Shown: positions 44,768 to 64,000, numbered from the stretch's first letter. The stretch: 64,000 nt of DNA from a candidate division FCPU426 bacterium (GCA_963738405.1 CAVTWJ010000012.1:94609-158608), one strand, 5' to 3'. Notes: generated by a model from the sequence alone, not told the origin. Program-made: numbers and translations.

Positions 44768-44770
44768 GGT

Positions 44771-45646
44771 TTAAAACTCCATGGCTAAAAGCTGGCGAAT
44801 CCAGAGAAACCCTATGGATTCAAGCAATAGGGCCGTAAAAAGAATGGCCCAGCCTTGGGGTGTAATAAATAAAGGCACCATAAGCGATGGGTCCATCACG
44901 AAGAAAACGAGACCCAGCAAAAAGGGCAGGCAACCCATGAGAATGCCCGAAAGCCGGGCCTGGGCGGTCATGGCGTCTCTTTTGCGCAAAAGGCGGTCCT
45001 TTTCTTGAAGGTTTTCCAGAAGCACCTCCAACAGGCGGGTCAAATTGGCCCCGGTAATGCGTGAAATGCGGTAGGCCTCGATGAATTGTCTGAAATCGTC
45101 AAAGCCGGGATAGCGGTCCGCCATAAATTCCAGGGCCTTGTCGGCGGCAGCCCCCAGGGCCATGTCTCCGCACACTTGGCGGTATTCGCCCTTTAAAGGT
45201 TCGGGGCATTCTTGAGATAGGTATTCCAAAACCTGCTGCATGGTCTGGCCCGACCTGAGGGCCTGAATCATCATTCCAAGGGATTGAGGAAAAACATCCT
45301 GTATGAACTTAAGTTTTTTCGCTGTTTTTTGCTTTTCGATAAATTTTGGTCCTAAGCGCAATCCTAAACCCAGAAAACCAACCACCATTAAGAGAAATAG
45401 GCCGGTACCAGCTTCGCCGTAGATAACGACTCCCAAAGAAAGGATGGCACCCAGAAGAATCCATCGGGTGTTCTTATCGATCGTTATTTTTCCGGAAACG
45501 CTAGGTGAAGTTTTAAGGGTTGGCTTCGGTTGGGGTTGGACTTGGTTCTTGGGGAGAAACTGAAGGAGAAAAGAGACCAACCCATATCCCGCCAAGCCCA
45601 CGCCCAGGGCCCCGATTCCCGAAACGATCCAGGGAAAGGCGCTCAT
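44771..45646 (-). CDS. tadB: Tad pilus inner-membrane platform protein TadB
   Basis: FPQSLGMMIQALRSG...TGANLTRLL...AMTAQARLSG. Confidence 0.88.
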   Translation of the reverse strand: MSAFPWIVSGIGALGVGLAGYGLVSFLLQFLPKNQVQPQPKPTLKTSPSVSGKITIDKNTRWILLGAILSLGVVIYGEAGTGLFLLMVVGFLGLGLRLGPKFIEKQKTAKKLKFIQDVFPQSLGMMIQALRSGQTMQQVLEYLSQECPEPLKGEYRQVCGDMALGAAADKALEFMADRYPGFDDFRQFIEAYRISRITGANLTRLLEVLLENLQEKDRLLRKRDAMTAQARLSGILMGCLPFLLGLVFFVMDPSLMVPLFITPQGWAILFTALLLESIGFLWIRQLLAMEF

Positions 45647-45648
45647 GG

Positions 45649-46398
45649 TTATTCCTCCACCCCGACGCCTTTTCGGAAGGGCTCTTTCTCTTCCAATTGG
45701 CGAAGGGCATTTTGGGCTGAATGGATAAGGGTAGGGTTCTTGGAGATGGAAACGAACTTTTGAAGTTCGGTCTTGGCCAAACTGCGGTCTTGAAGTTTTA
45801 AATAGGTGTTGGCCACCATCAGTTGGGCCGATTGGGCCAGGGGCGAAGCCGGAAACTTTTCAACTAAAGATCGGTAACTGGTCAAGGCGTCCCCCACCTT
45901 GTCCTTCAGCAAAAGGCAATTGGCTTCCTGGTATAAGGCGTAGGGGGCAACATCATTTCCCGCCCCTTCCAGCTTGGTGTATTCCTTCAGCGCCCGGTCG
46001 TAGTTCCCTTCCCAGAAATGGCAATCCCCAATCCATTTTGCGCCCTCTACGGCATGGGGGCTTTGGGGAAAAAAATCGAGAAGCTGTTTTAAGGCCAGCC
46101 TGGCTTCCGGATAAGCCTTTTCACCGAAAATCAGGGCATAACTCTCGAGGTAAAGAGCCTCTGGAACGGCGGGTGAGGGAGGAACTTGGCTCACGATCAC
46201 CTTGGCCTGGTTAATCGCCGTTTCGTAATGTGCCTTAGCGATCAGCCCCTTTAGGTTTTCTACTTGGGGGTTCGAAGACTCTGCCGCCACAACCGGCTTG
46301 AATTTAGAGCATGCGACGGAGGAAAGAATAGTGAGTGAAAAAAATAGAGATGTTAATAACCGGTACAAGATTTCCCTCGGTAAATAGGATAAGTTCAA
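45649..46398 (-). CDS. TPR lipoprotein (BamD-like repeats)
   Basis: Lipobox VAC; TPR units such as YRSLVEKFPASPLAQSAQL. Confidence 0.8.
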   Translation of the reverse strand: MNLSYLPREILYRLLTSLFFSLTILSSVACSKFKPVVAAESSNPQVENLKGLIAKAHYETAINQAKVIVSQVPPSPAVPEALYLESYALIFGEKAYPEARLALKQLLDFFPQSPHAVEGAKWIGDCHFWEGNYDRALKEYTKLEGAGNDVAPYALYQEANCLLLKDKVGDALTSYRSLVEKFPASPLAQSAQLMVANTYLKLQDRSLAKTELQKFVSISKNPTLIHSAQNALRQLEEKEPFRKGVGVEE

Positions 46399-46452
46399 CT
46401 CCGCGATATTTTAGTTTTATTTTGAAATAGAGCGAAGAAAAATAAGAAAAAT

Positions 46453-47478
46453 AAGGGGTCAGGCCTCCATTTTCCATTCTTCAATCTTTTTGGCTAATCC
46501 CTTATCCTTCAACAGCCTCACCTTCATCTTCACCCAACGGTTCCCCACCGCCGTTAGCCCAACCCCCATCCTTTTCCCTATTTCCTTTAAACTCAATCCC
46601 GATTCCCGTTTCAGCAAGTAGATCGCGACGTCCCGCGCCTCCGACCCCCGTTTCCCTGCCCTTAACAGTTCTTCCGGTTTTTCCCCGTAAGCTGTCGCCA
46701 CTTTTCTTATCAGTCTGTCCGGATCCTGTTTAACCACATGCTTTTGGTATTTCGGCACATCCAAATGTTTATGCTTTTGCCCCGCCTCATGAACCCTGTC
46801 CAAAAACTCCTCTTTCCCCAAATACAGCCTGGAACGCAATTCATCCCACGGGGATTCTTTTCTTCCCATCCCCTCCGTCACAAATGCCCGATAGGCCTTT
46901 CGGGCTTGTTGAAGGGTTCTCCCGAATTGTCCCAATAACCAATCGGTTTCCAGCCATTTTTCCGGTTGCTCCAACCCAGCAGTGGCCTTGTAGCTGCTCC
47001 ATTTCCACTCACCGGGGCTTTTGACCATCCGGGCCCTGACGGGATTCAATACCACATACCGGCATAATTCCTTCAAATAACTGTCTTTCTCCACCACAAT
47101 CGCCTTATACCTTCCTTGGAATAGATGCCCCACCCTATGGTGCTTTTTATTGAATTTCTGGGTGTAAATGCCGTTAAAGTGTTTCATCGCCAAGGAAAGA
47201 TTTGCTGCTGGAGTTTCCAGAAGCAAATGGTAATGGTTATCCATCAAAACCCATGCATGGCAGGTGACGTCGTGATGATCGACCATCTCAGCCAAAAGGC
47301 GGACAAACATTCCCCGGTCGGCATCGTCGAGGACAATCTTCCGCCGCTCGTTTCCCCGGGAAGTGACGTGATAAACGGCGCCCTCATAATGAATCCGCTT
47401 GGGTCTTGGCATACCAGCATTTTAATCGGCACCTTCTATTTGTAAAATGGAATATGGAGGCCTGACCCCTTTTTTTTA
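46453..47478 (-). mobile_element. Y1/RAYT-like element copy 1, bounded by 26-bp inverted repeats
   Basis: 46453-46478 AAGGGGTCAGGCCTCCATTTTCCATT matches the reverse complement of 47446-47471 at 25/26 positions; right-end sequence is shared with copy 2 up to T8A. Confidence 0.75.
46459..47412 (-). CDS. HUH Y1 tyrosine transposase (IS200/RAYT-like) with C-terminal DnaA_C-like HTH
   Basis: YHVTSRGN, HUH motif NHYHLL, GHLFQGRY, RYVVLNPVRA, WSSY; C-terminal ARDVAIYLL...SLKEIG. Confidence 0.9.
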   Translation of the reverse strand: MPRPKRIHYEGAVYHVTSRGNERRKIVLDDADRGMFVRLLAEMVDHHDVTCHAWVLMDNHYHLLLETPAANLSLAMKHFNGIYTQKFNKKHHRVGHLFQGRYKAIVVEKDSYLKELCRYVVLNPVRARMVKSPGEWKWSSYKATAGLEQPEKWLETDWLLGQFGRTLQQARKAYRAFVTEGMGRKESPWDELRSRLYLGKEEFLDRVHEAGQKHKHLDVPKYQKHVVKQDPDRLIRKVATAYGEKPEELLRAGKRGSEARDVAIYLLKRESGLSLKEIGKRMGVGLTAVGNRWVKMKVRLLKDKGLAKKIEEWKMEA

Positions 47479-47502
47479 AAACAAACACGAACGGCGAACT
47501 GG

Positions 47503-47552
47503 GATCGCCACGTCGCCAACCGCCCCGATTGGGGCGGCTCCTCGCGATGACA
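47503..47552 (-). repeat. Palindromic REP-like element (single copy in window)
   Basis: Reverse strand TGTCATCGCGAGGAGC...GCGACGTGGCGATC with inner hairpin CCGCCCC-GATT-GGGGCGG; resembles the widespread GTCATTGCGAG...GCAATC intergenic repeats. Confidence 0.5.
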
Positions 47553-47605
47553 GCCTGAGCCCAAACTATAATGCTCAAACTGATACACTACCGAGGCCTG
47601 AAATT

Positions 47606-49780: not shown

Positions 49781-49817
49781 GTTGCACACCATCCTTTTTG
49801 CGAGGGCCATGTGCAGG
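49781..49817 (+). repeat. 37-bp repeat R1
   Basis: GTTGCACACCATCCTTTTTGCGAGGGCCATGTGCAGG, exact. Confidence 0.99.
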
Positions 49818-49847
49818 CCTCCTTGGACAAAATCTTTTTTGGTTAAC

Positions 49848-49884
49848 GTTGCACACCATCCTTTTTGGGAGGGCCATGTGCAGG
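49848..49884 (+). repeat. 37-bp repeat R2 (C>G at position 21)
   Basis: One mismatch at 49868, in the predicted loop. Confidence 0.99.
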
Positions 49885-50069
49885 CTCGTGTAGTAAGGAA
49901 GGAAGCCAAAAACAATCTTGTTTACACCAACTACCGGCGTCACGATCGGATAGGGGCTCTGGGCATAAACGATTTGGGAAGAGAACGTTAAAAACCAAAC
50001 GGCAATGAAGATTAAGAACCCACTTTTCAAGTAACTTCTTGTCAGATAAGAATTTTTACAAATGAACAT
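49885..50069 (-). pseudogene. N-terminal fragment of a secreted protein cut at repeat 2 (possibly GH18-like)
   Basis: Signal peptide (...SQIVYAQ) then KIVFGFLPYYTS running straight into the repeat. Confidence 0.6.
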
Positions 50070-50105
50070 TTTTTATAATTCCAGATAAAAAAATCTAGCA
50101 ACTGC

Positions 50106-50816
50106 TCATCTTTGGGATATGTCAGAGGCGACAGGAATAACTTTATTTATTACTTTGTCGCTTTTCGCACCACCTTCGCCTAAAGCGACAATCGCAAAAT
50201 AGTAATTCTTACCATTAGTTAAATTACCAATTTTAATTTGGGTTTCTTTTATGTCCCCATCGAGCCTCTTTTTAAAATTTCTTCCGTCTTCCGAAATGTA
50301 AATTAAATAGCCCATCCCCCCCAAAGGTTTACCATCCGGACTTTTATCCCAATTGCTTGGAACTTCATCCCAAGACAAATAAGCGGAGCCATCACCGGGT
50401 TTGATTTTAAAATTTGTCGGAGTTAAGGGTTTGGGAATTCTTCGAACCGTACCGGGAATACCGAAAGATTTTAATTTTCCTTCTTTCTTCAATTCTTCAT
50501 ATTTTTTTGATTGCGCTTCATGAGCCTCTTTCATAGAACCTGGTTCTCGTTCACCATTAGGATCAAAAACAACTTTCTTCTTCTTTGGTTTTATTGACCC
50601 AACAACATTGGTTGGCGTTCCTATGGGCACAGGTTGAGATATTTGAGCGGGGGTAGTTGAAGGATCTAATAAATTTGAACCATTGGGTGATGGTGTCTGC
50701 CCTAGCACTGATTTGCTAAATAAAAAGACGATTAAAAAAAAGGGAATGGTAAAAGCAAAAAGTGTCATGCCTGAAAAAAGAATATTGGATTTGACTCTGG
50801 GACTTGGCTTTTTCAT
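50106..50816 (-). CDS. Secreted/membrane-anchored protein with C-terminal fibronectin type III domain
   Basis: N-terminal hydrophobic segment; PTNFKIKPGDGSAYLSW...GYLIY...NLTNGKNYYFAIVA. Confidence 0.8.
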   Translation of the reverse strand: MKKPSPRVKSNILFSGMTLFAFTIPFFLIVFLFSKSVLGQTPSPNGSNLLDPSTTPAQISQPVPIGTPTNVVGSIKPKKKKVVFDPNGEREPGSMKEAHEAQSKKYEELKKEGKLKSFGIPGTVRRIPKPLTPTNFKIKPGDGSAYLSWDEVPSNWDKSPDGKPLGGMGYLIYISEDGRNFKKRLDGDIKETQIKIGNLTNGKNYYFAIVALGEGGAKSDKVINKVIPVASDISQR

Positions 50817-50961
50817 CTATATACCCCCTCACAGAAATTTAATTGTTAGTGCCGAAGAGTCCTTGAGGTTTGTGCTGGATACGCCCCCGTTTGGGGAGCC
50901 ATTTGCGCCTGAATATTGTCACACCATAACCTTTTCAACCTGAGCATGCGCTATGACCTTA

Positions 50962-50998
50962 GTTGCACACCATCCTTTTTGCGAGGGCCATGTGCAGG
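50962..50998 (+). repeat. 37-bp repeat R3
   Basis: Exact copy. Confidence 0.99.
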
Positions 50999-51036
50999 TC
51001 AAAGTACATGTCAGTACAGGACTTGCACAACTTGCC

Positions 51037-51073
51037 GTTGCACACCATCCTTTTTGCGAGGGCCATGTGCAGG
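51037..51073 (+). repeat. 37-bp repeat R4
   Basis: Exact copy, 38 nt after R3. Confidence 0.99.
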
Positions 51074-51097
51074 AGCCTGTGAACAAAGGGGCCAGGC

Positions 51098-52359
51098 TGG
51101 ACTTCCCCCGAAAAAATGGACACCTGAGATGAGTGTAGAATACAGCTTACGGGGGTGTCTGTCATGGCGCATCGAATCAATAGGAAATATAGCCTTGAGT
51201 TTAAGCTGGAAGCGGTTCGACTCTCGAATGAGTCGGGTAAGCCAGTTACTCAAGTGGCCCGCGATCTGAATATCAATCCCGCTTTTCTTTACCGTTGGCG
51301 TGATGAAATCCATAAAGAAGGTTCCAAAGCTTTTCCGGGAAAGCCTGGCCGGAGTGTCAAAAGCCCCGAAAATGCTGAGATCATCCGTCTGCGCAAGGAA
51401 GTCAAACGGCTCACGGATGAGCGCGACATACTAAAAAAAACTCTAGTCTTCTTCGCGGCCGAAGAAGCCAAAAATTCGAATGCATCCGAGAACAACAAAC
51501 CCAATACTCCATAACGATGTTGTGTCGTGTTCTTGGGGTCTCTCGTAGTGGCTATTACGCATGGTTGAATCGAGAACCGTCGAAGAGAGACAAAGAAAAC
51601 ATATTGGTTTTACAGGAAATTCGAGAAGTCTATTTGATATCGAGAAAGGCGTATGGATCCCCGAGAATTCACGCGGGGCTGAAGAAAGAAGGTTTTGGTT
51701 GGGGGCGCAATCGAATCGCTAGATTGATGAAAATGGCTGGAATTCGGGCCTTGAGGCAGTACTACTACCGACGTTGCACGTTGACGAATCATGGGAGGAT
51801 AAGAACCAAGAACCTGGTGAAACAAAAGTTCGATATTAAGAAGCCCAATAGAATCTGGGCATCTGATATTACCCAGTTTCGTACAGGGGCTGGTTGGTTG
51901 TACCTGGCGGTCGTGATGGATCTTTTTTCTCGGCGAATCATTGGTTGGTCAATGCAACCCCATCTGCGGGAGGAATTGGCCATCGATGCCTTGAAGATGG
52001 CGATTCAAGAAAGAGGTGATCAAACGCCGAAGATTCATCATTCGGATCAAGGCAGTCAGTATTCTTCGAGAGCTTTTATTAATGAACTGAAAGAGCATCG
52101 GATCCAAAGCTCGATGAACCAAAGGGGAAGTTGCTACGACAACGCGGTGGTCGAAAGCTTCTTCAAAACCTTGAAAGCAGAGTTGGTGAGAACCGTGCGG
52201 TTCAACACGAAGGAAGAGGCGAAAGCTAAGTTGTTTGAATATATAGAGATTTTTTACAACCGGAAGAGATTGCATTCCACCTTGGGCTACAAAAGTCCGG
52301 TGGAGTTTGAGGGAACAACTACACTAAACTAGATTGTCCACTAAATCGGGGGAAGTCCA
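51098..52359 (+). mobile_element. IS3-family insertion sequence (1262 bp)
   Basis: TG...CA ends; IRL TGGACTTCCCCCGAAAAAATGGACA versus IRR (reverse complement) TGGACTTCCCCCGATTTAGTGGACA; 3-bp target duplication GGC at 51095-51097 and 52360-52362. Confidence 0.96.
51164..52332 (+). CDS. IS3 transposase OrfAB (-1 programmed frameshift)
   Basis: OrfA HTH (RKYSLEFKLEAV...ERDILKK); A8 run at 51433-51440 whose -1 frame is open into OrfB (WASDIT, HHSDQGSQY, DNAVVESFF). Confidence 0.93.
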
Positions 52360-52362
52360 GGC

Positions 52363-53310
52363 CTACATTTTACACTTTAGAAGCCTCTTGGCGAACGCCC
52401 GGTCTTTAGCCATCTTCGTCTTGATCCTCGCCCATTGGTTCCCCACCGCCGAAAAACCTACCCCCATTCTTTTCCCGATCTCTTTTAAACTCAATCCCGA
52501 CTCTTTTTTCAGCCAATAAATCGCCACTTCCCGCGCTTCCCGCCTTCTCCGGACTGATTTCAGTATCTCGTCCGGCTTTTCCCCGTACACTACCCCGATC
52601 TTCTCCAGTACCATTGCCGGTTCCTTTTTAACCACATGTTTCTGGTACTTGGGCACATCCAGGTGGCGGTGTCTTCGCCCCACCTCGTGCACCCTGTCCA
52701 AGAATTCTTCTTTTCCCAGGTAAACCTGGGAATAAAGCTCTTCCCAAGGCGACTCTTTCTTGCCCATTCCATCCGCCACAAACTGCTTATAACTTTCTTG
52801 GGCCTGTTTTGCCGTTTTTCCGAACTGACCCAAGATCCAGTCTGTTTCCAGCCATTTTTGCGGTTGCTCCAACCCAGCAGTGGCCTTGTAGCTGCTCCAT
52901 TTCCACTCACCGGGGCTTTTGACCATCCGGGCCCTGACGGGATTCAATACCACATACCGGCATAATTCTTTCAAATAACTGTCTTTCTCCACCACAATCG
53001 CCTTATACCTTCCTTGGAATAGATGCCCCACCCTATGGTGCTTTTTATTGAATTTCTGGGTGTAAATGCCGTTAAAGTGTTTCATCGCCAAGGAAAGATT
53101 TGCCGCGGGAGTTTCCAGAAGCAAATGGTAATGGTTATCCATCAAAACCCATGCATGGCAGGTGACGTCGTGATGCTCGACCATCTCAGCCAAAAGGCGG
53201 ACAAACATTCCCCGGTCGGCATCGTCGAGGACAATCTTCCGCCGCTCGTTTCCCCGGGAAGTGACGTGATAAACGGCGCCCTCATAATGAATCCGCTTGG
53301 GTCTTGGCAT
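52363..53310 (-). CDS. HUH Y1 tyrosine transposase (IS200/RAYT-like), copy 2
   Basis: Same motifs as 46459-47412; N-terminal half almost identical, C-terminal half diverged. Confidence 0.9.
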   Translation of the reverse strand: MPRPKRIHYEGAVYHVTSRGNERRKIVLDDADRGMFVRLLAEMVEHHDVTCHAWVLMDNHYHLLLETPAANLSLAMKHFNGIYTQKFNKKHHRVGHLFQGRYKAIVVEKDSYLKELCRYVVLNPVRARMVKSPGEWKWSSYKATAGLEQPQKWLETDWILGQFGKTAKQAQESYKQFVADGMGKKESPWEELYSQVYLGKEEFLDRVHEVGRRHRHLDVPKYQKHVVKKEPAMVLEKIGVVYGEKPDEILKSVRRRREAREVAIYWLKKESGLSLKEIGKRMGVGFSAVGNQWARIKTKMAKDRAFAKRLLKCKM

Positions 53311-53402
53311 ACCAGCATTTTAATCGGCACCTTCTATTTGTAAAATGGAATATGGAGGCCTGACCCCTTTTTTTTATAGATGATTAATTCCCTGCTTATA
53401 TA

Positions 53403-53439
53403 GTTGCACACCATCCTTTTTGCGAGGGCCATGTGCAGG
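53403..53439 (+). repeat. 37-bp repeat R5
   Basis: Exact copy. Confidence 0.99.
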
Positions 53440-54010
53440 CCATTGGGAGGCCCTGGTTGGAACCGATTTTTTCACTTGGGAGGTCTGGGAACCTTGGGGC
53501 TTGACCACTTATTACGTACTTTTCCTTATCCACCAAGCGAGCCGAAAAGTCCACATAGCCGGTATCACGACCAACCCTGATGGGGATTGGATGAAGCAAA
53601 TAGCCAAAAACCTAACCATGCCGGACTGGGGTTTCCTCAAACAAGGGATGATTTTATTGCACGATCGGGGCGGTCAATTCTGCCCGACTTTCCGGCGAAT
53701 CTTGCAAAACGAGGGAATCCAAACCCTGATGCTTCCCTTCCAAAGCCCAAATCTCAATGCCTATGCGGAACGTTGGGTAAGGTCCGTAAAGGAAGAATGC
53801 TTATCCAAGATGATTATTTTGGGAGAACCGATGTTACGAAACTCTTTGAAGGAATATCTCGCTCATTTCCATGGGGAGCGTCCCCACCAAGGACTTGGCC
53901 GTATTCCCTTTCCTGCCCGAGAACTAACCAGAGGAAGCCCAAAGGGCAAGATCGTCTGTCGTCAAAGGCTCGGCGGAATCCTTAACTTCTACTTCCGGGA
54001 GGCGGCGTGA
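53440..54010 (+). pseudogene. 5'-truncated integrase-core (DDE) transposase
   Basis: HWEALVGTDFFTWE...LLHDRGGQF...PNLNAYAERWVRSVKEEC...RPHQGLG; closely matches 63466-64000 but lacks everything upstream, which is replaced by R5. Confidence 0.9.
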
Positions 54011-54039
54011 ATAAGTGAACCCTACGCCCTTTACCTCGG

Positions 54040-54585
54040 CTACTTTAGCAATAGAGTAAATCGGAAGAGATTCATGAGAAAAACCAAAACCAAAAACGGA
54101 ATCCCAAACAATAGGGCCAAATCGAAAACCAGTCTTTTAAACGTCGGCTGTAATGATTTTCCTAATTTGTAAAAAAAAGTGATGTACAAAAAAGCTATCA
54201 GGAGCGGAACAAAAAAACACAGCCACGACCGCACGCCCCCATTCCACCCCGAAATAAACAAGCCAAACACGATCACATAAAGGAAAATCAAAAACCCCAA
54301 AAGAGTCTCGAACCATTTCAAATGCGGCTTCTCGCGATCCCACGAGCCCCTAGCCTTTTGGACGGCGATATGCGCCACAACTGTCGTCCCCAAAAACAGC
54401 GGAAACAAGAAAAGACACCCATACCCCAAAGTGTTAGAAATTTGATCTTCTTGAAAAATAGAACGCTCATTGACGAGTTTTTCCCAAAAGCCTTCAAGAA
54501 CAATCAAAAAAAACAAAACGGCGGCTACCCACACTCCGAGTTTTTCATAGTTCACCGCCGTCCCCTTATGCGTTCTCATGGGCAA
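54040..54585 (-). CDS. Membrane protein, putative immunity protein
   Basis: About five TM segments; overlaps the stop of the upstream toxin-like ORF. Confidence 0.6.
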   Translation of the reverse strand: MPMRTHKGTAVNYEKLGVWVAAVLFFLIVLEGFWEKLVNERSIFQEDQISNTLGYGCLFLFPLFLGTTVVAHIAVQKARGSWDREKPHLKWFETLLGFLIFLYVIVFGLFISGWNGGVRSWLCFFVPLLIAFLYITFFYKLGKSLQPTFKRLVFDLALLFGIPFLVLVFLMNLFRFTLLLK

Positions 54586-54950
54586 CCGCCAGGATTAATG
54601 TTTGGTTGTTTAAAGAGTTGGAAGCCCGCCGATATGTCAGCCGCCGCCCGTTGACTATTCCCAAGGGGTGTCTTGGGTACTCCAGGCCCAATAGGATTGC
54701 TCCACGGTAACTTTCGGACAAGCGCCGCTATCTCTTGTGCCTGCTCTTCTGTATAACCCGCCGCCGCCATATAGACTCCGTAATTCACATTTCCCAAATC
54801 ATGCAGTTGTACCTTCGTGTAAAAGTCAGGGTTGTTGTAGTCATAGCCGTAAGGGTTGTTGGGGTTATAGTTGGAATTTACAAAAGGCAAAACGTGCGTG
54901 CCCCAGTCATCGGGCCCGCCCTGGCCCAATAGTTGGTTTATTGAAAATTT
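54576..54950 (-). pseudogene. Orphan polymorphic toxin C-terminus (Ntox44-like RNase)
   Basis: NQLLGQGGPDDW...HDLGNVNYGVYMAAAGY resembles the GNxNYG motif of Ntox44; no convincing native start; 5' limit approximate. Confidence 0.6.
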
Positions 54951-54977
54951 TTGAAATTTTATTCACTGTTTCCGGCC

Positions 54978-55231
54978 TCATTTTATTGCAAACGTCGAAT
55001 CTGGAATTCCCTTATCCACTTCATCCGTCACCACATCCATATCCGCACTCACGTCGAAATTATTCGTATGGCTTTCAGTGTGTGTATGCAAAGGATGGTA
55101 AGTGCTCCCAATTTTTTGGTAGGTCGCGTCCATGTTTAAGACCGTCTTCCCATTTTTGTCCTTCCCTTCCATGTGGGTAACTGTGTTGGTATCCGGATCA
55201 ACCTTGATGGTTGCATGATCCACGTTCTTTG
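54978..55231 (-). pseudogene. C-terminal fragment cut at repeat 6 (LolA-like lipoprotein-sorting protein tail)
   Basis: ATIKVDPDT...KDKNGKTV...EVDKGIPDSTF; the only start codon is a GTG inside the repeat. Confidence 0.55.
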
Positions 55232-55268
55232 GTTGCACACCATCCTTTTTGCGAGGGCCATGTGCAGG
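55232..55268 (+). repeat. 37-bp repeat R6
   Basis: Exact copy. Confidence 0.99.
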
Positions 55269-55271
55269 TCA

Positions 55272-55976
55272 TCATTTCCAATAAATATTAAAAACAAGAA
55301 TTAAATAATTGATCACTCCGTGGCATACAAGAGAGGTTATCAAAACATTTGTCTTTTCATACAAAAGTCCTAAAACAAGCCCACTTAGTAAATAATATAA
55401 AAAATCATAACCTCCTCTTGATGAAGTAAAAGTAATATGCATAGTAGCGAAAACAAAACCTTGAAGAATTAATGCCCACCATAAATTCATATGGTTTTTA
55501 AAAAAATTAAAGACAATTCCTCGGAAAAAAAATTCTTCACTTATGGGTCCTAATATAATTGTTTGAAATCCTAAAATAGTAACGGGAAAAGTTAAGACAC
55601 TTATCCATCCTATTTCATTTTTAGGGGCTGTATGTATAAGTGACAAATTCCAATAAGGGGTAAGACGAACAAAAATAATCAGGGCAAAACCAACCAAAAT
55701 ACCAATTATCCAATTCCGATCTAAATAACTACTCTTATTTAATAAAATGATTTGTTTAAAGAAATTCTTATTTTTGAACTTTGCATAATAAAAAGGGACA
55801 ACAATGTTAATAATCAATGCAAAATACCCAAACAGAAATTCTGCGATCAAATTATTATTGAGGAAATATTGGGCAAAAAGAAAACCAATAAATTTTAAAA
55901 TAAATATAAAAATTACAAGTAAAGAAAAGTCAATTAATGTTAAATCAAATTTATTCTTAAGGTGGTACGCTGCCAT
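55272..55976 (-). CDS. CPBP/Abi (CAAX protease-like) intramembrane protein, putative immunity
   Basis: PISEEFFFRG, FATMH and CHGVIN motifs; overlaps the end of the Rhs ORF; stop codon 3 nt from R6. Confidence 0.9.
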   Translation of the reverse strand: MAAYHLKNKFDLTLIDFSLLVIFIFILKFIGFLFAQYFLNNNLIAEFLFGYFALIINIVVPFYYAKFKNKNFFKQIILLNKSSYLDRNWIIGILVGFALIIFVRLTPYWNLSLIHTAPKNEIGWISVLTFPVTILGFQTIILGPISEEFFFRGIVFNFFKNHMNLWWALILQGFVFATMHITFTSSRGGYDFLYYLLSGLVLGLLYEKTNVLITSLVCHGVINYLILVFNIYWK

Positions 55977-56910
55977 TACAAATGGCCTCCCAAAACGCTT
56001 TCCAATTAAAAAAGCTATCCCAATTATCCATTAATTCGCCGGGAAATTGATGACCAGAATATGATTTTGCCGTGTCAACATCATCAAGCCAATCGACAAC
56101 ATCATTATTAAGTAATGGGCTTATTACAGCAGGAACTATTTCTAAATTTCCAGGGCCATAAATGTTGGGGAACGGAAGGTATTGTGTGTTATAAGGCCAA
56201 ACATTAGGCGTCTTAACTACACCATTATTCGCATTGTTTTTCCCATTACCATTTCCTACCCCACAAATACTACAACCGCCACCACCGTTACTAGATGGAG
56301 TTGATGTTGGCGTTGGGTTTTGGACAGGTGTTGGTGGTGAACAAAGTAAACCAGATAGATCAATAAATCTAAATGGGTTGTTTAATACCATCGAATATAA
56401 GTTTTGTCCGGCTCTTTCATTCAAAGGGTCTCGGTTCAACCATCTTCCCTTATTTGCGTCGTAGGCTCTGAATAAAGTTAAGTCTAATCCTGTTGCATTT
56501 TCTTGGTAGAAACCTGTGTAACCAAAGTCGGAATCCAGATCACCGGATAGCTTTGTCTTTCTCCCATACGTATCGTAATCATAATTTGCATGAATAGTTC
56601 CACCACCGTCCGTCATTTCTCTTATGTTTTCGAGATGATCTCTTGTATAAAAATACTGTGTTGTACCGATAATCTCTCCCATAACAAAGAACTGTTTGGC
56701 TACCGTGTGCCCGGTCGCGTCCCTTTGTTGACATAACTGTCCCCAGCACCAAACAAGTGTTTTATTCGTTAAAACTATTGCCCCATGACTTTCAGTTATG
56801 CCTATCCTTCTTCCCCAACCGTCATAGCTCATCGTTACCGTATCCGCCACTCCTGGCGGCTGGGGGTTCAGGAAGGTGACGCTGATCAACCTGTTTTCCG
56901 CATTCCTGTT
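55957..56910 (-). pseudogene. Orphan Rhs core fragment with variable C-terminus
   Basis: AENRLISV, YDGWGRR, YTRDHLENIRE, FGYTG, FRAYDANKGRWLNRDP, NNPFRFIDLSGL; 5' limit approximate. Confidence 0.9.
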
Positions 56911-56930
56911 TAAGAAAAGCAAAATCAATT

Positions 56931-57428
56931 CTAGGTTTTATTTGAATACTTTCTTTGAAAAGCTTCAATGTCAGGACCCAATTCTAAATTTGGTATTTTC
57001 GATTTGATAATTTCAATAAGTTGGCACAAATCACTTCCGTTAAACAAAACGGCTAAATGCATAGAAAATGTTTTACTCGCATTTAAAGAAGCGTTTGGGT
57101 TCATACAGAAAATTGTGAGCGAGGGAAAAACCCCAATAACAGAATTTATTTTTTTTATTTCTTCCCATCTAACCATTTGGCCTTTAGATAAAACACCACT
57201 CTCCTTAATCCCTTCTTCGTAGACTATTAATTTAATTGTCAATATAAACGGTACTATTGGGCCAAGCAGACCATAAAAGATAAAATTTAACGTGATATAA
57301 AGGGTGGGCAAGTGGCCGATGAAATTTACCCATGCTGGAATAACAAACACTAAAAGGAAAAAAATCACAAAAACCCACCAGATTTTAGAAATTCTAAAAA
57401 CCTTAAAAGATTTTTTCATTTCGCCCAA
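56931..57428 (-). CDS. Two-TM protein, putative immunity protein
   Basis: SD GGAGGG; two TM segments plus a soluble tail (VRWEEIKKI); directly downstream of a toxin-like tip. Confidence 0.6.
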   Translation of the reverse strand: MGEMKKSFKVFRISKIWWVFVIFFLLVFVIPAWVNFIGHLPTLYITLNFIFYGLLGPIVPFILTIKLIVYEEGIKESGVLSKGQMVRWEEIKKINSVIGVFPSLTIFCMNPNASLNASKTFSMHLAVLFNGSDLCQLIEIIKSKIPNLELGPDIEAFQRKYSNKT

Positions 57429-57475
57429 GGTTTTCCCTCCTCCCTGTTGAATTTAAATCAACTCAATGAAAAACC

Positions 57476-57719
57476 TTACCCATTGCATCCAGGATTAATG
57501 TTAACTATTGGACTGTGTAATAAACTAGAAAGTCCACATAACAAACCTTCCGCAGTAAGCTCTAATACTTCCATAACGCTGTAACCAATATCTCCCATAC
57601 CGAGTGCCAGTTGCCCACCAGGCCCCGCCGTTTTACACGCCATATAATCTAAAAGATTTAAATTGGGTGCGCGTTTATCAGCAAGTCCGAACCCAATTTC
57701 CAAAAGGCCTGATCCTAAA
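57476..57719 (-). pseudogene. C-terminal fragment cut at repeat 7 (probable Rhs toxin tip)
   Basis: Gly/Leu-rich frame LGSGLLEIGFG...NINPGCNG is open from the repeat edge. Confidence 0.55.
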
Positions 57720-57756
57720 GTTGCACACCATCCTTTTTGCGAGGGCCATGTGCAGG
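57720..57756 (+). repeat. 37-bp repeat R7
   Basis: Exact copy. Confidence 0.99.
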
Positions 57757-57931
57757 CACGGTCGTATTAATGACTTCAGTATTCTTGGGCGGCGTTGGAA
57801 TGAGCCTGGCCCAAACTCCGGTTCCGTCTGGAGCTCCGAGAAAGATTGTCAAACATGTTAAGCATGCGAAGGTCGTTAAGGTTTGGAAGGCGGCGAAACC
57901 CTATTCTTCCAAAACACCAACGGTTAAATAA
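57757..57931 (+). pseudogene. Small secreted Lys-rich protein with its signal peptide cut by repeat 7
   Basis: TVVLMTSVFLGGVGMSLA-QTPVPS...KHVKHAK... lacks the basic n-region and native start. Confidence 0.55.
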
Positions 57932-57981
57932 TTAATAATTGGTGTTTGTTTATTCAACGAATAACTTTGGATGCCCTTGCG

Positions 57982-58635
57982 TTAAGATGTTAACTTTTCG
58001 TAAATAATAACATTAGAATTTTTTAATACTTTAAGATTATACGTCATTCCCTCGGATAAATAATTTCTTGAAAAGTATAGTGTATAAAAAGAATTATTTT
58101 CCCCTTTTAAAAGAATATTTTGTATTAAAAACCATGTCTGCGGCATGGGTCCGGGGGTATCAGCATCTATAATTGACGTTTTGGAAACCATAATTTGTTC
58201 ACCTGTAATAAGACCGGAAATATCTTTAACTAAAGGTATATTGATATAAATTCCCACAAAAAAGACAAATACGGAGAATATTTTTGTAACCAGGTGCCAG
58301 GTTTTAAATGTAATATTCCGATATTTTTGGCTATCAAGTGTTCCTGATTTTTCTTGAGTCAGAAACCTTGGATTTAAAAAAATATAAACTGCAAGAATCG
58401 GTATTTCGCCCTTAACAATTATTGCCCCAATTAAGTGAACTACTACTTCTGGCAACAGCAACATAAACAACAAAAACAAACCTAAAGAAAACAACCAGAT
58501 AGACGAATAAATAATTATTTTTTTGTTTCTGGAAGAACTTTGTAATTTGTGGCCTTTGATCTCATTCAGCAGGTTTCGTTTTTGCATCCTCTTTTTGGTT
58601 ATCTCCGCCCGTAATATGGTTAATGCCATTTTCAA
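57982..58635 (-). CDS. Membrane protein, putative Rhs immunity protein
   Basis: AT-rich, about three TM segments, overlaps the 3' end of the Rhs gene; start uncertain. Confidence 0.6.
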   Translation of the reverse strand: MKMALTILRAEITKKRMQKRNLLNEIKGHKLQSSSRNKKIIIYSSIWLFSLGLFLLFMLLLPEVVVHLIGAIIVKGEIPILAVYIFLNPRFLTQEKSGTLDSQKYRNITFKTWHLVTKIFSVFVFFVGIYINIPLVKDISGLITGEQIMVSKTSIIDADTPGPMPQTWFLIQNILLKGENNSFYTLYFSRNYLSEGMTYNLKVLKNSNVIIYEKLTS

Positions 58636-61178
58636 CGGTTTTGTTTACTTTATCTTCAGCGCCAGTCCCTTTATAAATACTTTCTTCTTCATTAGAAGCT
58701 ACACTAGATAAAGTTCTGGCACCAAATAATTTAACTCCGGTCTTTACGGAAATATCACTTATTTCCTTTTTCGCTCCATTTAATGCATTTTCCACACCTT
58801 CTCCGAATTTTGTTTTTATCTGTTTCTCTAACGCGGTTATGCTTCCTTTGCCCGTAATATCATTAAGTTTTAGAGTTTTTGCTACTTTGTCAAAAAGTTT
58901 GCTTGTTACAAGACTGGTTCCTATTTCTGTAACATATGATGCAGCATTAAATTTTGATGATTTCCCTTCGATGACATCATGTATCTGCCCAAGAAGATTC
59001 GAAGTCGTTGCGGAAGCAACAGCCCCAGCAGCAGGCGATCCATATAAAGTAGCTTCTCCTCCGACACCGCCAGCTATTGCAGCTTGAAAGTAACCAAATC
59101 CATCCGTTTTGCCCGAAATTTTTTGTGCAATAGCTTCAGTTACTATTCCCCCAACAACCCCAGCTGATATTGCAGCCACATCGTCCCATCCAGCCCACCT
59201 TCCATCGGTATCCCGGAGTTTCACCGGATTATTTTGTGCATATGAATAAAGACCAAGATTCCCAGGGTTATAAATACCGTTGTGGGGCTTTCCGTTCAAA
59301 TAAGTATCCAAAATGGGGTCGGGACTTTGCCAAACACTCGTCCTCGGATCGTAATACCGTACTCCGAAATAATACAGCCCAGTCTCTGAATCCCATTCTT
59401 TATCAGTGAAAGAGTAGTTCGGGAAAAGTTGAAGGCTCGCTTCCTGGTCGATCCAAAATTCGCCAAATGGAATGTATTCAATATGTTCGGACAAGACTCC
59501 AGATCCATCGGACATGTAGCCAGTGCTTCCCAAATGATCGGGATGGTAGAAGAATACAAAGTAGTTCTGGGGTATCACGCTGGAACTAGGCCACACACCC
59601 TGACAGGAAGAGGGAGTACCAACGGTTGCCGCTGCCGACTGAACATAAGCTGTCTGACCGTTGTAATAGACTTCGTAAAAACCCGTATATTGGTTCAACG
59701 TCTGCAGGGTCAATGTCTGACAACTGTTGATTGTTCCTAAAACGGTCCCTTCCACCGAATCAGATGCATATAGCGGCGTGCCATCACTCAAAACGGTCAC
59801 ATATTGAATCTGTTGACTTGACCCATTGTTATTGCCTTGGGAATCAACTTGCTGACTGTACTGGCTCCAATTGGCATTCCGGCCCCAACTCATATTGGCT
59901 GAACTCACAAGAGTATATCCACTGCTGTTTCCACAAGAAGGACAGGGAGTGCAATTGGGGCAAGGGAAAGTCGCCTGATCAATCGCCAAGGTCTGATCAT
60001 CCTTCGCATTCACAATCTGGCTGGCAATCCTATTTGAACCTATAAAAATGTGCTTGCTAGCCACAAAACCGTTACAACTTTGAGGCTTCTCAAGTGTGTA
60101 AAACTGATTAATGTAGGCGTTGATATTACCACCTTGGAGCTTGTAAACGCGGCTTCCCTTATCGTCATAAACAAAATGAACATCACTAGTATTAGTCGCT
60201 TGAACTCCAGGATCACCGTCGCCTACTGCTACAAGACGATTTTCCTCATCCCATACCATGTTGCGGTTTGTGCTGTAATCGCAGTCACCAGGCAAAACGT
60301 CAAAACCTAATTGGTTTCCATTGCTGTCGTAGAAGAAGTCCCGTAGGCCGATCTGCGTAGGGGCATGTGGATGGGTACTGTTGTAAGAATACTTCCAATC
60401 GTAGGTCAGACGGGTATCGGGTCCAATCGTTGTCAGCCCCGTCGGCTCATTCACTTGGGTAAAGGTTGCCGCCTGATTCTTTTCTTGGATGTTGTTAATG
60501 TTGTCATAAGTCATCGCAAGGTTATAAGTACTGTCGTAGGTCGATCCACAAGAAGGATCGAAAATCGAATGGATTGTTCCCGTGGCATTCGTCAGCCGAT
60601 AAAGGTCGTCGTAACCAAAGGTCTGGGTTACTCCCCCACCTAACAAATGTCCAGGCATAGGTGCTATCGCGTTGGCAAAGGTCGTAACATTGCCAACTGC
60701 GTCATAACTATAGTTTAGATTTTGGAAAGTTACAGGCCCAGTCAGGCTTTGCAGATTGCTTAACCGTCGAGTTGTTGGTACATATGAGTAACTTGTCTGG
60801 GTTCCATTTCCATGTTGTAAGAATACCCTTTGCTCAAACTTATCGTACTCAAGCCGTAACACATAAGGAAATATCTCATTTTTAACCGTGCCTGTCGCCA
60901 TCCTAGGTAATCCACCCGAGTCGTATTCATAAGTCAGAACTTCACCATCGGGATATGTCATTGCTTCCAGGCGGCCCCAGGTATCAAAGGTGTATTGGGT
61001 CACGTAAGTTAGCGGCATGGCACCTGCGGCGTAAAGACTGCCACTCGGTGCTCCCCAACCCGTGAACGAACCAGAAGAGCCAGAAGTAGTATTGGATGTT
61101 CCAGAACGACCCCATCCGGAAGAACTCCCGCTTCCTGAACCTTCCCATACCCCGAATCCTCCGCAGGTGGGGCATTGG
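58562..61178 (-). pseudogene. 5'-truncated large Rhs/YD-repeat toxin
   Basis: YTFDTWGRL, YSYDAVGNV, FGYDDLYRL, WDEENRL, YHPDHLGST, FTDKEWDSETGLYYFGVRYYDP, NNPVKLRDTDG; the frame is open from 61177 (QCPTCGG...) at the R8 edge. Confidence 0.92.
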
Positions 61179-61215
61179 GTTGCACACCATCCTTTTTGCG
61201 AGGGCCATGTGCAGG
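61179..61215 (+). repeat. 37-bp repeat R8
   Basis: Exact copy. Confidence 0.99.
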
Positions 61216-61827
61216 TTCAGGGATTGCCCGGTCTTTGGGGGAGGTAATCCCGGTGATGTGGAAGGCGGAACCCTTCAGGGTGAGGCTTTGCACCTCCATT
61301 GCCGAATTGTCCGCCCTGTCTTTATTGCGCGGATCAAGAAAAAAGGCCATCCAACCGCGCCATTAAATTATGTCATCTATACCAATGATTTTATGAAACA
61401 TCTCACCACCTTTTCCTATTCGGGGGAGGTCGTGACACCGGACCAGGCTCCTGTTTCCTATCAATGGGTGACTTTTGGTATTGACCCGGTAAATCCGTCC
61501 AAACCCTTTGAGGCTCAATGCACCTATCTCGGTTTCCAAACTGATTCAGGTCACCCGGTTAAAGAGGACCCAGGTTGCGATGATTGTTATTTGGTGTCGG
61601 AGGTGGGAAATTCAGGGGATTTGGCAAATTCGGCCGAGATGTCATTTGACGGGGGTGCCCATCTTTCAAGGGCGGCCTATTCAACCGACGGGGGTAAAAC
61701 CTGGCTGGATAAATTCGAATGGGACGCCAATATCGTCATCTTAGGGCCCGACTGTATTGAACCTCAAAAGCTTGAGGGTATTTCCATACCGACACCCCAA
61801 CCCCTCCCTAAGGAATTGAACCAATGA
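61216..61827 (+). pseudogene. Probably 5'-truncated hypothetical protein beginning at repeat 8
   Basis: Open frame FRDCPVFGGG...AAYSTDGGKTW...; coupled (ATGA) to the next gene; an in-frame ATG lies inside the repeat. Confidence 0.55.
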
Positions 61828-62957
61828 AAAGAGGCTTTTCTTTAGTTGGCTATTCCCTTCTGTTTCTGATGGTTTGCGGAAGCCTATTCTCCCAACAATA
61901 TGTGGATAGTTTTCTCGAGGCTCGGCAATCGGCTAATGAAGCCTTCAATAAAGGGGATTTAAACACTGCTTTAAAGGAAGAAAAGCGGGCCTTGGGTTTG
62001 GCTCAGGGAAAATACGGCCAGTTTCATCCTTCACTCGTACCTGTATTGAACGACCTCGCCACGCTGGAAAGGTATTTGGGCCAATACCAGGATGCGGAGA
62101 AATATTACAAATTAGGCCTTACGATCCGGGAACAAATCCTGGGGATGGATGACCCTCTGGTGGCCGAATCCCTCGATAACTTGGCCGTCCTGTATGACGA
62201 TCTGGAAAGGGATGAAGAAGCTCAAATTTTAGAAAAACGGGCATTAGCCTTACGTGAGGGACAAAAAGGGTTTGTCGTAAATGATTCCTATCTGCGCGAA
62301 CTTCTCCAATTAGGAAAAACCCATACTCGTTTAAAAAATTACGAAGATGCCGGAAAAACCCTTGGTAAAGCCATGGCATTGGCCAACAAGACATTACCTT
62401 CAGGTAGTCCTTTTAATAGTGAAGTTATCGAAGCATTGTCCGATGCGGAATTAGGGGGCGGTCACCCGGATTTGGCGGAAGCTGATTTATTGAAATCCCT
62501 GGAACTTAAGAAGGCAAGGTTGACGGAAAACAATTACGAGGTTGGAAATCTTTATAAAAAGCTGGGGGATTTTTACAGGGATTTAGGGAAAAAAGATGAA
62601 GGCCAGGGGTATTACCAAAAAGCCCTTAAAGTTCATCTCCGTTATATCAGTGGCTCCTGTGATTATATGAACGTTGATCGATTTGATGAGGCTTCGAATG
62701 ATTACCTGGCCTTGGGGGACCACGCGGAATCGTTGAAGCTTAAGAAACAGGTTCTGAAAACCTTGGTCGAGATGTGGGGGAAGGATAATCCCCTTTCGGC
62801 GATTTGTCAGGCGGTAATGGCTGAGAACGAAGCGGCTTTGGGGGAAAAAGATGAAGCCCTGTCGGATCTTCAACAGGCTTTGGGGATATTAAAGGACGAA
62901 TTAGGCCCGGATCACACTTTGACGAGAGGGGTTATTAAAATTTTAACAGAACCATAG
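61824..62957 (+). CDS. Secreted TPR protein (kinesin-light-chain-type repeats)
   Basis: Signal peptide; LNDLATL...LTIREQILGMDDPLVAESLDNLAVLY. Confidence 0.88.
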   Translation: MKRGFSLVGYSLLFLMVCGSLFSQQYVDSFLEARQSANEAFNKGDLNTALKEEKRALGLAQGKYGQFHPSLVPVLNDLATLERYLGQYQDAEKYYKLGLTIREQILGMDDPLVAESLDNLAVLYDDLERDEEAQILEKRALALREGQKGFVVNDSYLRELLQLGKTHTRLKNYEDAGKTLGKAMALANKTLPSGSPFNSEVIEALSDAELGGGHPDLAEADLLKSLELKKARLTENNYEVGNLYKKLGDFYRDLGKKDEGQGYYQKALKVHLRYISGSCDYMNVDRFDEASNDYLALGDHAESLKLKKQVLKTLVEMWGKDNPLSAICQAVMAENEAALGEKDEALSDLQQALGILKDELGPDHTLTRGVIKILTEP

Positions 62958-62966
62958 GACACGGAT

Positions 62967-64000
62967 ATGAACTACCAAATCTTTTTCACGCTTCTAGCCG
63001 CCCTTTTGAATCCCGAAAAACGCTCCCTCATGGACTTCTACGAATCCCAAATCAGGTTTCTCCTGGCCCACCTTCCCAAACGACCCGTTCCTACCTTGGG
63101 ACAGAAAATGGACATGTCAAAGGCAGCGGCCAAATTAGGAAGAAAAGGCCTTAAAGAAATTCTCACTCTTTTTAACCCCTGACACTCTCCTGCGTTGGCA
63201 AAGGGAAGCTGTCCGGGAAAAGTGGGATTATTCCAAAAATCGGGGCCCCGGAAGGCCGTCTCTGGCCAAGAATATTGAAAAGCTGGTGGTCCAATTCGCC
63301 CAGAACAATCCCTCTTGGGGATACAAACATATCCGGGACAGCCTGAAAACCTTGGGATTCATTGTCGGCAAAACCACAATCCGCAACATCCTTAAAAGGC
63401 ATGACTTAAACCCAGCCCCGGAAAGAATAAAGAATGGCCCTACCTGGGCCGAGTTCACAAAGTCACACTGGGAAGCACTCGTTGGAACCGACTTTTTTAC
63501 CTGGGAGATTTGGGAGCCTTGGGGTCTTACTACCTACTATGTTCTATTCCTCATCCATCAAGCCACAAGGAAAGTCCATATTGCCGGTATCACGACCAAT
63601 CCTGATGGGAATTGGATGAAGCAAATAGCCAAAAACCTAACCATGCCGGACTGGGGTTTCCTCAAACAAGGGATGATTTTATTGCACGATCGGGGCGGTC
63701 AATTCTGCCCGGCTTTCAGGAGAATCCTGCAAAACGAGGGAATCCAAACCTTGATGCTTCCCTTCCAAAGCCCAAATCTCAATGCCTATGCGGAGCGGTG
63801 GGTAAGGTCCGTAAAGGAAGAATGCTTATCCAAGATGATTATCTTGGGAGAACCGATGTTACGAAACACTTTGAAGGAATATCTCGCTCATTTCCATGGG
63901 GAGCGTCCCCATCAAGGACTTGGCCATATTCCCTTTCCTGCCCGAGAACTAACCAGAGGTAGCCCAAAAGGCAAGATCGTCCGCCGTCAAAGGCTCGGCG
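62967..64000 (+). pseudogene. Integrase-core (DDE) transposase, frameshifted near 63170-63180, runs off the window
   Basis: ORF 62967-63182 stops at LTLFNP*, while the next frame continues PDTLLRW...GPGRP...NPSWGY...TDFFT...NAYAERWVRSVKEEC. Confidence 0.85.

Follow-up and report, generated by a model that had tools for sequence, protein, structure and literature searches.

A 64,000-nt stretch of a candidate division FCPU426 genome (GCA_963738405.1 CAVTWJ010000012.1:94609-158608), here called the window, carries eight co-oriented copies of a 37-bp repeat, R, which are set apart by kilobase, gene-bearing blocks as well as by short spacers; in related soil bacteria, R closes a small multicopy unit that encodes a Cas1 of the CRISPR type and a Cas2-like protein. 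The borders of R are exact, its spacing is irregular in several genomes, and its link to cas1 is both physical and phyletic. The array is neither a regular CRISPR array nor an integron, nor is it a miniature inverted-repeat transposable element (MITE) or an artefact of a single assembly; it resembles an offshoot of CRISPR in which long DNA is stored. We propose that the window repeats form a lineage-specific, CRISPR-derived array, that R forms the end of a small mobile adaptation unit, and that a "ruler-less" Cas1 integrase would join DNA of any length to R and duplicate R, a reading to which we give a probability of about one half. An earlier reading of the window sequence (the original prediction) had recognized a CRISPR-like array; the cas1 partner lies beyond what it could see.

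Exact borders and irregular spacing of the repeat

The window is the end of contig C12 of its own genome, G000, a 23-contig draft of 3.18 Mb that is 90.7% complete. Allowing up to three mismatches, a search for R returned exactly eight window matches, all on the + strand as written (starts at 49781, 49848, 50962, 51037, 53403, 55232, 57720 and 61179), and none in any of 100 shuffles. Seven copies are identical, the remaining one (R2) having C>G at repeat position 21, and the intervals between them measure 30, 1077, 38, 2329, 1792, 2451 and 3422 nt; the sequence beside R is unrelated at all eight copies, and target duplication is absent. On all of these points, including the sharp boundaries at every copy, the original prediction was right. 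R has no terminal inverted repeats, and the hairpin ascribed to it is indeed predicted, although it is just moderately stable: the strand as written gives −12.0 kcal/mol (z −1.6) and its complement −12.9 kcal/mol (z −2.1). As near-identical direct repeats of 37 bp, the copies fall within the ~23-55 bp of CRISPR repeats; the regular short spacing of CRISPR is missing, with 2 of 7 window intervals short, or 3 once the nested elements of interval 4 are removed. In the cas-gene direction of relatives, R reads CCTGCAC...GTGCAAC and lies on the − strand; because the order there is cas1, cas2-like gene, R, we read the window array from R8 (first) to R1 (last):

49781..49817 (−): R1, last repeat in the cas-gene reading direction
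49848..49884 (−): R2, variant with G at position 21, which the copies on contigs C4 and C23 share
50962..50998 (−): R3
51037..51073 (−): R4
53403..53439 (−): R5
55232..55268 (−): R6
57720..57756 (−): R7
61179..61215 (−): R8, first repeat in the reading direction, with no cas2/leader flank beside it

Across G000, R occurs 13 times in three places and is co-oriented in each, the five copies outside the window lying <4 kb from the starts of C4 and C23. This is not the both-orientation scatter of a MITE or of the end of an insertion sequence (IS), which the original prediction had considered, and R is also unlike such elements in having neither inverted repeats nor target duplication. With up to three mismatches R is found in 7 of 61 related genomes, in 6 of 30 of the same family and in none of other families. 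A degenerate pattern counts 27 copies in G001, 19 in G002, 14 in G014, 27 in G027, 10 in G004 and 2 in G025, and none in G003 or G024; throughout the relatives the copies are clustered, locally co-oriented and irregularly spaced. Between co-oriented neighbours (18 stretches, five genomes) the 58 gaps span 30-14,100 nt, the median being ~1.8 kb; just two of them fall within 25-50 nt, both the window's own short gaps, and none of the seven R-bearing genomes has a regular run of three or more copies. R stays fixed at 37 bp and is nearly invariant; some arrays mix variants, some sites hold a single copy, and two inverted doublets exist. The irregular pattern recurs deep in contigs of 0.42, 1.6 and 2.05 Mb, the G004 example being in megabase-size contigs and one genome having just 5 contigs; it is therefore no quirk of the G000 draft assembly.

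Among species-representative genomes, the first 20 nt of R match at eight loci, four of which are G027's record; the others, in Limnohabitans, Polaromonas (two) and Leptofilum, were set aside as chance, only the 20-mer matching and lying inside coding sequence. A metagenome scan for R gave five distinct loci on four contigs, again with kilobase spacing, and two of the contigs share one 3572-nt block.

Neither the 3.18 Mb of G000 nor 367 kb of R-rich DNA from its relatives contains a half or truncated R, the single near-miss being a full R with a small indel; DNA has therefore always been joined exactly at both R ends. Cut genes and mobile elements abut R at either border. IS fragments of G000 are cut at window 53440 and at C23:2072; other cases are a 559-nt internal piece of a DDE transposase gene, lying between two repeats, and an N-terminal kumamolisin fragment; and the homology of a gene at locus L089 to three other genomes starts at the base after R. 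A 1271-nt multicopy element of G027, E, has full copies at C2:191860-193130, on C18 and at ~87.5 kb of C3, copies being 99.8-100% identical, and is cut at R twice (G027:C3:75287 and 385264), nt 1-1044 running up to R in one case and nt 732-1271 starting after R in the other. Both pieces are 100% identical to the intact copies, so both cuts are recent, and since they overlap by 313 nt they are not the halves of one interrupted copy. One G027 cas1 copy begins at nt 386 of the unit described below, directly after another R. Among the cut elements examined (the two G000 IS fragments, E twice, this cas1 and the L089 gene) none continues across R, and no two R sites, whether of one genome or of different ones (the congeners G001 and G002 among them), have an R-abutting flank in common except the cas2/leader flank. 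A search for a motif at block ends, of the kind that adjoins protospacers, found faint A/T enrichment only (≤0.33 bit). Capture of RNA-derived DNA, in the manner of long interspersed nuclear elements, had been suggested by remnants of the cas unit that are all cut 5'; we rejected it, most of these cuts being the ends of Y1-transposase elements or repetitive extragenic palindromes (REPs), and genes being cut at both block ends.

A multicopy cas1/cas2-like unit ends in the repeat

Adjacency to cas1 and cas2 is absent for R in the window and in G000; it is found, with weak Cas2 identity, in G001, G004, G014 and G027, where R stands 22 nt after the stop codon of a 111-aa open reading frame (ORF). 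The unit to which these genes belong is 1504 bp long and comprises a variant of a REP-like palindrome, cas1, the 111-aa Cas2-like gene, 22 nt, and R as its last 37 bp. Full copies number five, three of them in G027 and the others in G014 and G004; their identity is 97-100%, and they have the same two borders, with differing DNA to either side. A form with 93% identity is present in G001 and G002, the G002 contig stopping where R would come. The unit is thus seen in five genomes of four genera at 93-100% identity and is multicopy within a genome; it lacks inverted repeats at its ends, its flanks show no duplication, and it has two ORFs only. Its cas1 is present in 5 of 99 genomes of the phylum, all five of which carry R; the two R-bearing genomes without it are 91% and 89% complete and have their R copies at contig ends. 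The CRISPR affinity that the original prediction had seen in R is borne out by this pair of genes 22 nt away and by a cas1 confined to R-carrying genomes.

The unit's Cas1 matches TIGR00287 at 2e-71 to 1.7e-74, and its best solved-structure matches are CRISPR Cas1 proteins (1.3e-33). Across the four genera the protein is 96-100% identical, compared with 70-73% DNA identity between congeners for the core genes beside the island, which points to recent horizontal spread. Codon changes between genera, 47 synonymous and 15 non-synonymous, indicate that cas1 is under purifying selection; the 111-aa gene has 9 synonymous and 11 non-synonymous changes. The three nearest language-model clusters of the 111-aa protein are all Cas2 (0.88-0.89), and its relatives fill 5 clusters among 5.8 billion proteins; a PDB sequence search gave chance-level matches only, and an AlphaFold model was unusable (mean predicted local distance difference test score 40). 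The protein thus appears to be Cas2-like and diverged, a weak assignment, and we withhold the name Cas2.

No effector genes were found beside the unit in six of six units examined, class 2 effectors not having been searched for; the neighbours are housekeeping genes (glutamate synthase, ABC transporters). Among the five genomes with the unit, RAMP and Cas6_C are found in none, and cas3_core exceeds its cut-off in three (not G027 or G004), always at other loci. Relatives of the unit's Cas1 exist at 57-82% identity, several of them labelled Patescibacteria, and none was found in IMG/VR. The likeness of R to type VI-B direct repeats, which the original prediction had raised, found no support: Rfam gave zero matches at E≤1 in 44-64 kb of the window, the genes linked to R are cas1/cas2-like, whereas type VI-B loci are not known to carry cas1 and cas2, and no large HEPN protein was seen among 20 window ORFs, Cas13b not having been searched for genome-wide.

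G000 retains the 7-nt junction sequence beside R4 and, beside R on C23, a 34-nt remnant of the unit made up of the 22-nt linker and the end of the cas2-like gene. The only Cas1 of G000 belongs to a type III locus (L025, C23:63064-75950) and is 27% identical to the R-linked Cas1; this locus is canonical, its 37-mer differing from R and occurring 34 times, and it carries a reverse transcriptase of the group II intron type, cas2, cas1 and RAMP genes. Its repeat and R both end in GCAAC in the transcribed direction. Two candidate components common to R loci were rejected: a conserved 3.5-kb block beside cas2 (the similar-size blocks in three genomes are unrelated) and the 569-aa and 566-aa proteins beside two arrays (mutually unrelated).

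Cargo between the repeats

The long intervals of the window hold low-GC, unique accessory DNA, with Rhs toxin fragments, immunity-like genes and IS pieces:

49818..49847: spacer of ordinary CRISPR size, 30 nt
49885..50961: block of 1077 nt, 39% GC; ORF 50106-50816 (−), 236 aa, weak fn3 match
50999..51036: spacer of ordinary CRISPR size, 38 nt
51074..51080 (−): 7 nt, AGCCTGT, beside R4; identical to the bases joining R and the cas2-like gene in the G001 and G002 cas units
51081..53376 (−): Y1 (IS200-like) transposase plus helix-turn-helix (HTH) element with 38-bp inverted repeats; gene 52363-53310 (−)
51097..52360 (+): IS3-family element inside the Y1 element; inverted repeats of 42 nt, rve transposase 51517-52332
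53377..53402: 26 nt beside R5; with 51074-51080, the original 33-nt spacer
53440..54026 (+): IS (rve_3) fragment, 5'-truncated, its first base directly after R5
54027..55231: rest of block 5; ORFs 54040-54585 (−) and 54737-55180 (+), no firm family
55269..57719 (−): block 6, 33-41% GC
55272-55976 (−): CAAX/Rce1-like protein, block 6; stop codon 3 nt from R6
55957-56928 (−): orphan Rhs C-terminal fragment, block 6; RHS repeat and DPxGL-like core end
56931-57428 (−): membrane-like ORF, 165 aa, block 6
57757..61178 (−): block 7; Rhs-repeat protein fragment 58562-61018 (ATG at 61018), then a 217-aa ORF 57982-58635

The kilobase, gene-bearing intervals that the original prediction described are real, and such blocks are seen in several genomes, but interval 4 (2329 nt) is different: it is a 33-nt spacer that holds the Y1 element with the nested IS3-family element, and no captured block. 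The Y1 element is 85% identical to a copy at 46447-47477 and has its left inverted repeat split by the IS3-family element, which itself is 99.5% identical to two copies on C14; the 7 nt AGCCTGT beside it may be the remnant of a leader. In block 5, the IS fragment is 100% identical to C23:1980-1394, where the copy extends 92 nt further and then meets another R. The Rhs frame of block 7 remains open for 66 codons upstream, through R8, so the gene was cut at the repeat border. Blocks 6 and 7 have a GC content of 33-47% against ~51% for the contig, and the sole relative of the 1077-nt block in its own genome is a 68%-identical paralogue on C19. Neither element ends nor inverted repeats were found near the borders of blocks 2, 5, 6 and 7. 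Pfam found no Cas proteins and no tyrosine or serine recombinases among the 20 ORFs of 43.9-64 kb, five of which have no family, and exact searches of IMG/VR returned no match to the 30-nt spacer, the 38-nt spacer or R.

In the best-assembled relative, R blocks carry a Dam-type methylase, DndB, SRAP, a Y-family polymerase, a GmrSD fragment, a PD-(D/E)XK nuclease, IS elements, porins and Rhs genes. Orphan C-terminal toxin/immunity modules are known from Rhs loci, which blocks 6 and 7 resemble in their 5'-cut Rhs gene, orphan C-terminal piece, membrane and CAAX-like immunity-type genes and low GC. Rhs orphan arrays, however, are not known to have identical 37-bp repeat separators, and other R blocks carry methyltransferase, DndB, IS pieces and porins.

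Synteny with congeners ends at ~46.3 kb, and the DNA to its right is a strain-specific island. The last congener-syntenic genes before it, at 43895-46398 (−), are two T2SSF-family (TadB/C-like) genes and a TPR lipoprotein gene. Positions 1-44 kb hold core genes; the gene at 1305-7478 (−) encodes a hybrid histidine kinase of 2057 aa, in which 11-12 HAMP domains stand in tandem and which also has one GAF and three receiver domains. Beyond the array, 2.4 kb at 61577-64000, with a TPR protein gene and an rve-type IS, extend to the contig end and are 96% identical to G000:C13:11475-9053.

A Cas1 integrase and its rivals

In the mechanism we propose, the unit's Cas1 integrase would act without the usual length ruler, as a casposase does, and would join the ends of DNA pieces of 30 nt to >10 kb to both R borders. 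Repair would then duplicate R, as in spacer acquisition, and repeated rounds would build an island of unique, mostly foreign, gene-bearing blocks between identical repeats, in which transposable elements would land afterwards, as in interval 4. The cas unit would either have been lost from the window, leaving short leader-like remnants, or lie beyond the contig end 2.8 kb away, and interference genes would not travel with it. Insertion by Cas1 with duplication of R would be the simplest account of the exact joining at two borders, the unique inserts, the coexisting 30-38-nt spacers and the strict tie to a conserved, selected cas1. It would also be the best fit of the three mechanisms that the original prediction offered: crossover between spacer and protospacer finds no counterpart in the window blocks, which are without terminal direct repeats, and the domain of an integron-type recombinase is absent from the 20 ORFs around the array. 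What we infer from these patterns is that Cas1 makes the junctions, that each event duplicates R, and that the island has a biological role.

Several observations weigh against such an integrase. We know of no CRISPR Cas1-Cas2 shown to insert kilobase DNA; the unit's cas1 is absent from the window and from the G000 assembly, and the 111-aa protein falls short of the Pfam cut-off for Cas2 (E=0.0057). An upstream R is lacking in all five full units, and repeat duplication therefore leaves unexplained how the unit itself spread. No before/after alleles or empty sites were found in congeners, synteny stopping at the island or at the relatives' contig ends. ORFs of at least 100 aa in the blocks run mostly in the cas-gene direction (137 of 174, with 37 opposite), and an ORF of at least 80 codons ends ≤40 nt upstream of R at 18 of 78 non-leader repeats, compared with 8-9% of control positions; random capture predicts neither. 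The R variants mixed within one array differ at 4-5 positions, which simple duplication does not give. Finally, Y1-transposase elements or their ends adjoin R, and sit in cas2 remnants, far above chance, so that another enzyme could be involved.

The R system shares with CRISPR adaptation modules a CRISPR-type Cas1, a small gene in the Cas2 position, a hairpin 37-bp repeat directly downstream, and unique intervening sequences of which some are 30-38 nt. Unlike those modules, its repeats are spaced from 30 nt to 14 kb, its "spacers" carry whole genes and gene fragments, and its unit has sharp borders, occurs in multiple copies and hardly varies between genera, with a leader of just 22 nt and no effector seen beside it. 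Casposons are transposons whose Cas1 casposase inserts kilobase DNA at a specific site and duplicates the target, repeated insertion giving rows of sites and elements. As far as abstracts describe them, they resemble the R system in that Cas1-family insertion of kilobase DNA with target duplication is proposed here too and the cas unit behaves as a mobile element. Differences are that the unit is without a family B polymerase or terminal inverted repeats, that R blocks share no ends, that the casposon target duplication is ~14-15 bp and R is 37 bp, and that the unit's Cas1 groups with CRISPR Cas1, not with Cas1-solo, by hidden Markov model score rather than by a tree.

A more ambitious version of the Cas1 reading, which we hold only tentatively and at clearly less than even odds, is that a Cas1 integrase with a diverged Cas2-like partner, its length ruler and interference arm lost, writes DNA of up to at least 10 kb into a 37-bp site and duplicates the site each time; such a self-mobile platform for capturing genes would exist in nature as a living intermediate of casposons and CRISPR, and would assemble islands of toxin, immunity and defence genes in a soil phylum without cultured members. 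If Cas1 makes the junctions, CRISPR-type integrases would naturally insert kilobase, gene-carrying DNA at a defined short site. That would bear on the proposal that CRISPR arose from Cas1 transposons, since the form has features of both; genomic islands would have a new route of assembly beside integrons, and the enzyme would be of practical interest for site-specific insertion of long DNA. The literature searched, from which subscription-only papers fall outside, yielded no description of Cas1-linked repeats with kilobase gene-bearing intervals, and the ~1.5-kb cas1/cas2-like unit, multicopy in a genome and 93-100% identical across four genera, appears undescribed there, which holds on the more cautious readings as well; passages of PMC5294841 bring up long spacers solely as something that splits array calls.

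An ordinary CRISPR array that acquired short spacers and was later broken by mobile elements and by recombination or deletion, so that the long blocks are secondary, strikes us as unlikely. Interval 4 shows just such insertion into a 33-nt spacer, two further spacers are of normal size, many cas2 remnants are truncated by IS and MITE ends, and stand-alone adaptation modules exist in many genomes and are known with arrays (PMC6452270). Gaps of normal size nevertheless number 2 of 58, a regular run of at least three repeats occurs in 0 of 7 genomes, and blocks 2, 5, 6 and 7 have no element ends or inverted repeats at their borders. The IS, cas1 and E fragments moreover start or end at the base adjoining R, which insertion into a spacer cannot give, and identical R copies and purifying selection on cas1 misfit a decaying locus.

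It is also doubtful that R is the site of a different enzyme, be it the abundant Y1/HUH transposases, capturing DNA at its hairpin in a one-ended or rolling-circle-like manner, or recombination by the host among R copies, with the cas1/cas2-like genes as mere passengers of an integron-like system. Integrons likewise line up gene blocks in one orientation, with a hairpin-forming site after each, and have an accessory, variable content; block genes here are mostly co-oriented, and R is enriched after ORF ends, as in integron cassettes. The two inverted doublets, the REP-like hairpin at which the unit begins, with a left arm that varies between copies, and the Y1+HTH genes near R in G001, G014 and the window would suit this explanation too. 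Against it, no tyrosine or serine recombinase is encoded by any of the 20 ORFs around the window array, and no IntI-type enzyme was found by Pfam in those ORFs or in annotated arrays of relatives; attC sites vary in sequence and length, whereas R is identical, and many R blocks are gene fragments or multigene. The cas unit is the sole cassette seen in two contexts. Y1 relatives occur in 39 of the 61 genomes, with up to 24 matches per genome, and R in 7 only. Although Y1+HTH genes lie 82-243 nt from R at four G001 sites and 1.3 kb away at a fifth, four 99%-identical copies of a Y1 element include two without R nearby and two with R 98 and 171 nt outside the element; R is therefore not part of it.

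That R is a tiny self-inserting mobile element of the REP or MITE kind, deletions between co-oriented copies having made the truncated flanks, is very improbable. R does occur singly at some sites, and blocks 7 and 6 can be read as one continuous Rhs toxin/immunity locus with R7 in its middle, but the two sides of R never continue one another at the cut elements and genes examined, and R, without terminal inverted repeats or target duplication, is clustered and co-oriented rather than scattered. R is like REPs, their paired form (REPINs) and the associated RAYT transposases in being short and palindromic, with Y1 genes as frequent neighbours and a REP-like palindrome at the unit's other end; it is unlike them in its 2-27 clustered, co-oriented copies per genome, in the lack of an inverted pair flanking Y1 genes and in its absence from most genomes with the Y1 family.

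Among public reads, one soil run held 14% of the words at ~2-4x depth in k=31 contigs and bridged no junction informatively; in one such contig the sequence left of R1 passes through R into the sequence right of R6, an ambiguous join. The public data list no RNA run for this DNA. Wrong contig joins via the 37-bp repeat of a normal array are scarcely credible as the origin of the pattern, for although G000 is a 23-contig draft with all its R loci near contig ends, and that public contig shows short-word assemblies to be ambiguous at R, the same irregular pattern recurs in six other genomes inside contigs of 0.4-2.05 Mb, and a wrong join would still require each block truly to abut R somewhere.

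Further repeats and mobile elements accompany these loci. The two Y1 copies of the window, at 46447-47477 and 51081-53376, encode a 315-317-aa Y1 (IS200-like) transposase fused to a DnaA_C-type HTH, and the inverted repeats of the window Y1 elements differ in sequence from R. A ~75-nt multicopy element at 47475-47555, beside the first of them, is found at 85-93% identity in >30 places of three congeneric genomes. The REP-like perfect palindrome GTCCACGACGGGGACCCGTCGTGGAC, a variant of which, with a left arm differing between copies, forms the start of the cas unit, has 63 matches on both strands (~31 sites) in G000 and several per 16 kb in G027; examples lie at C23 ~3990-4030, L028, L042 and L043. 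Another repeat, of ~230-300 nt, stands at L027:9547-9873 (G014:C5) and occurs in many places in the congener G024.

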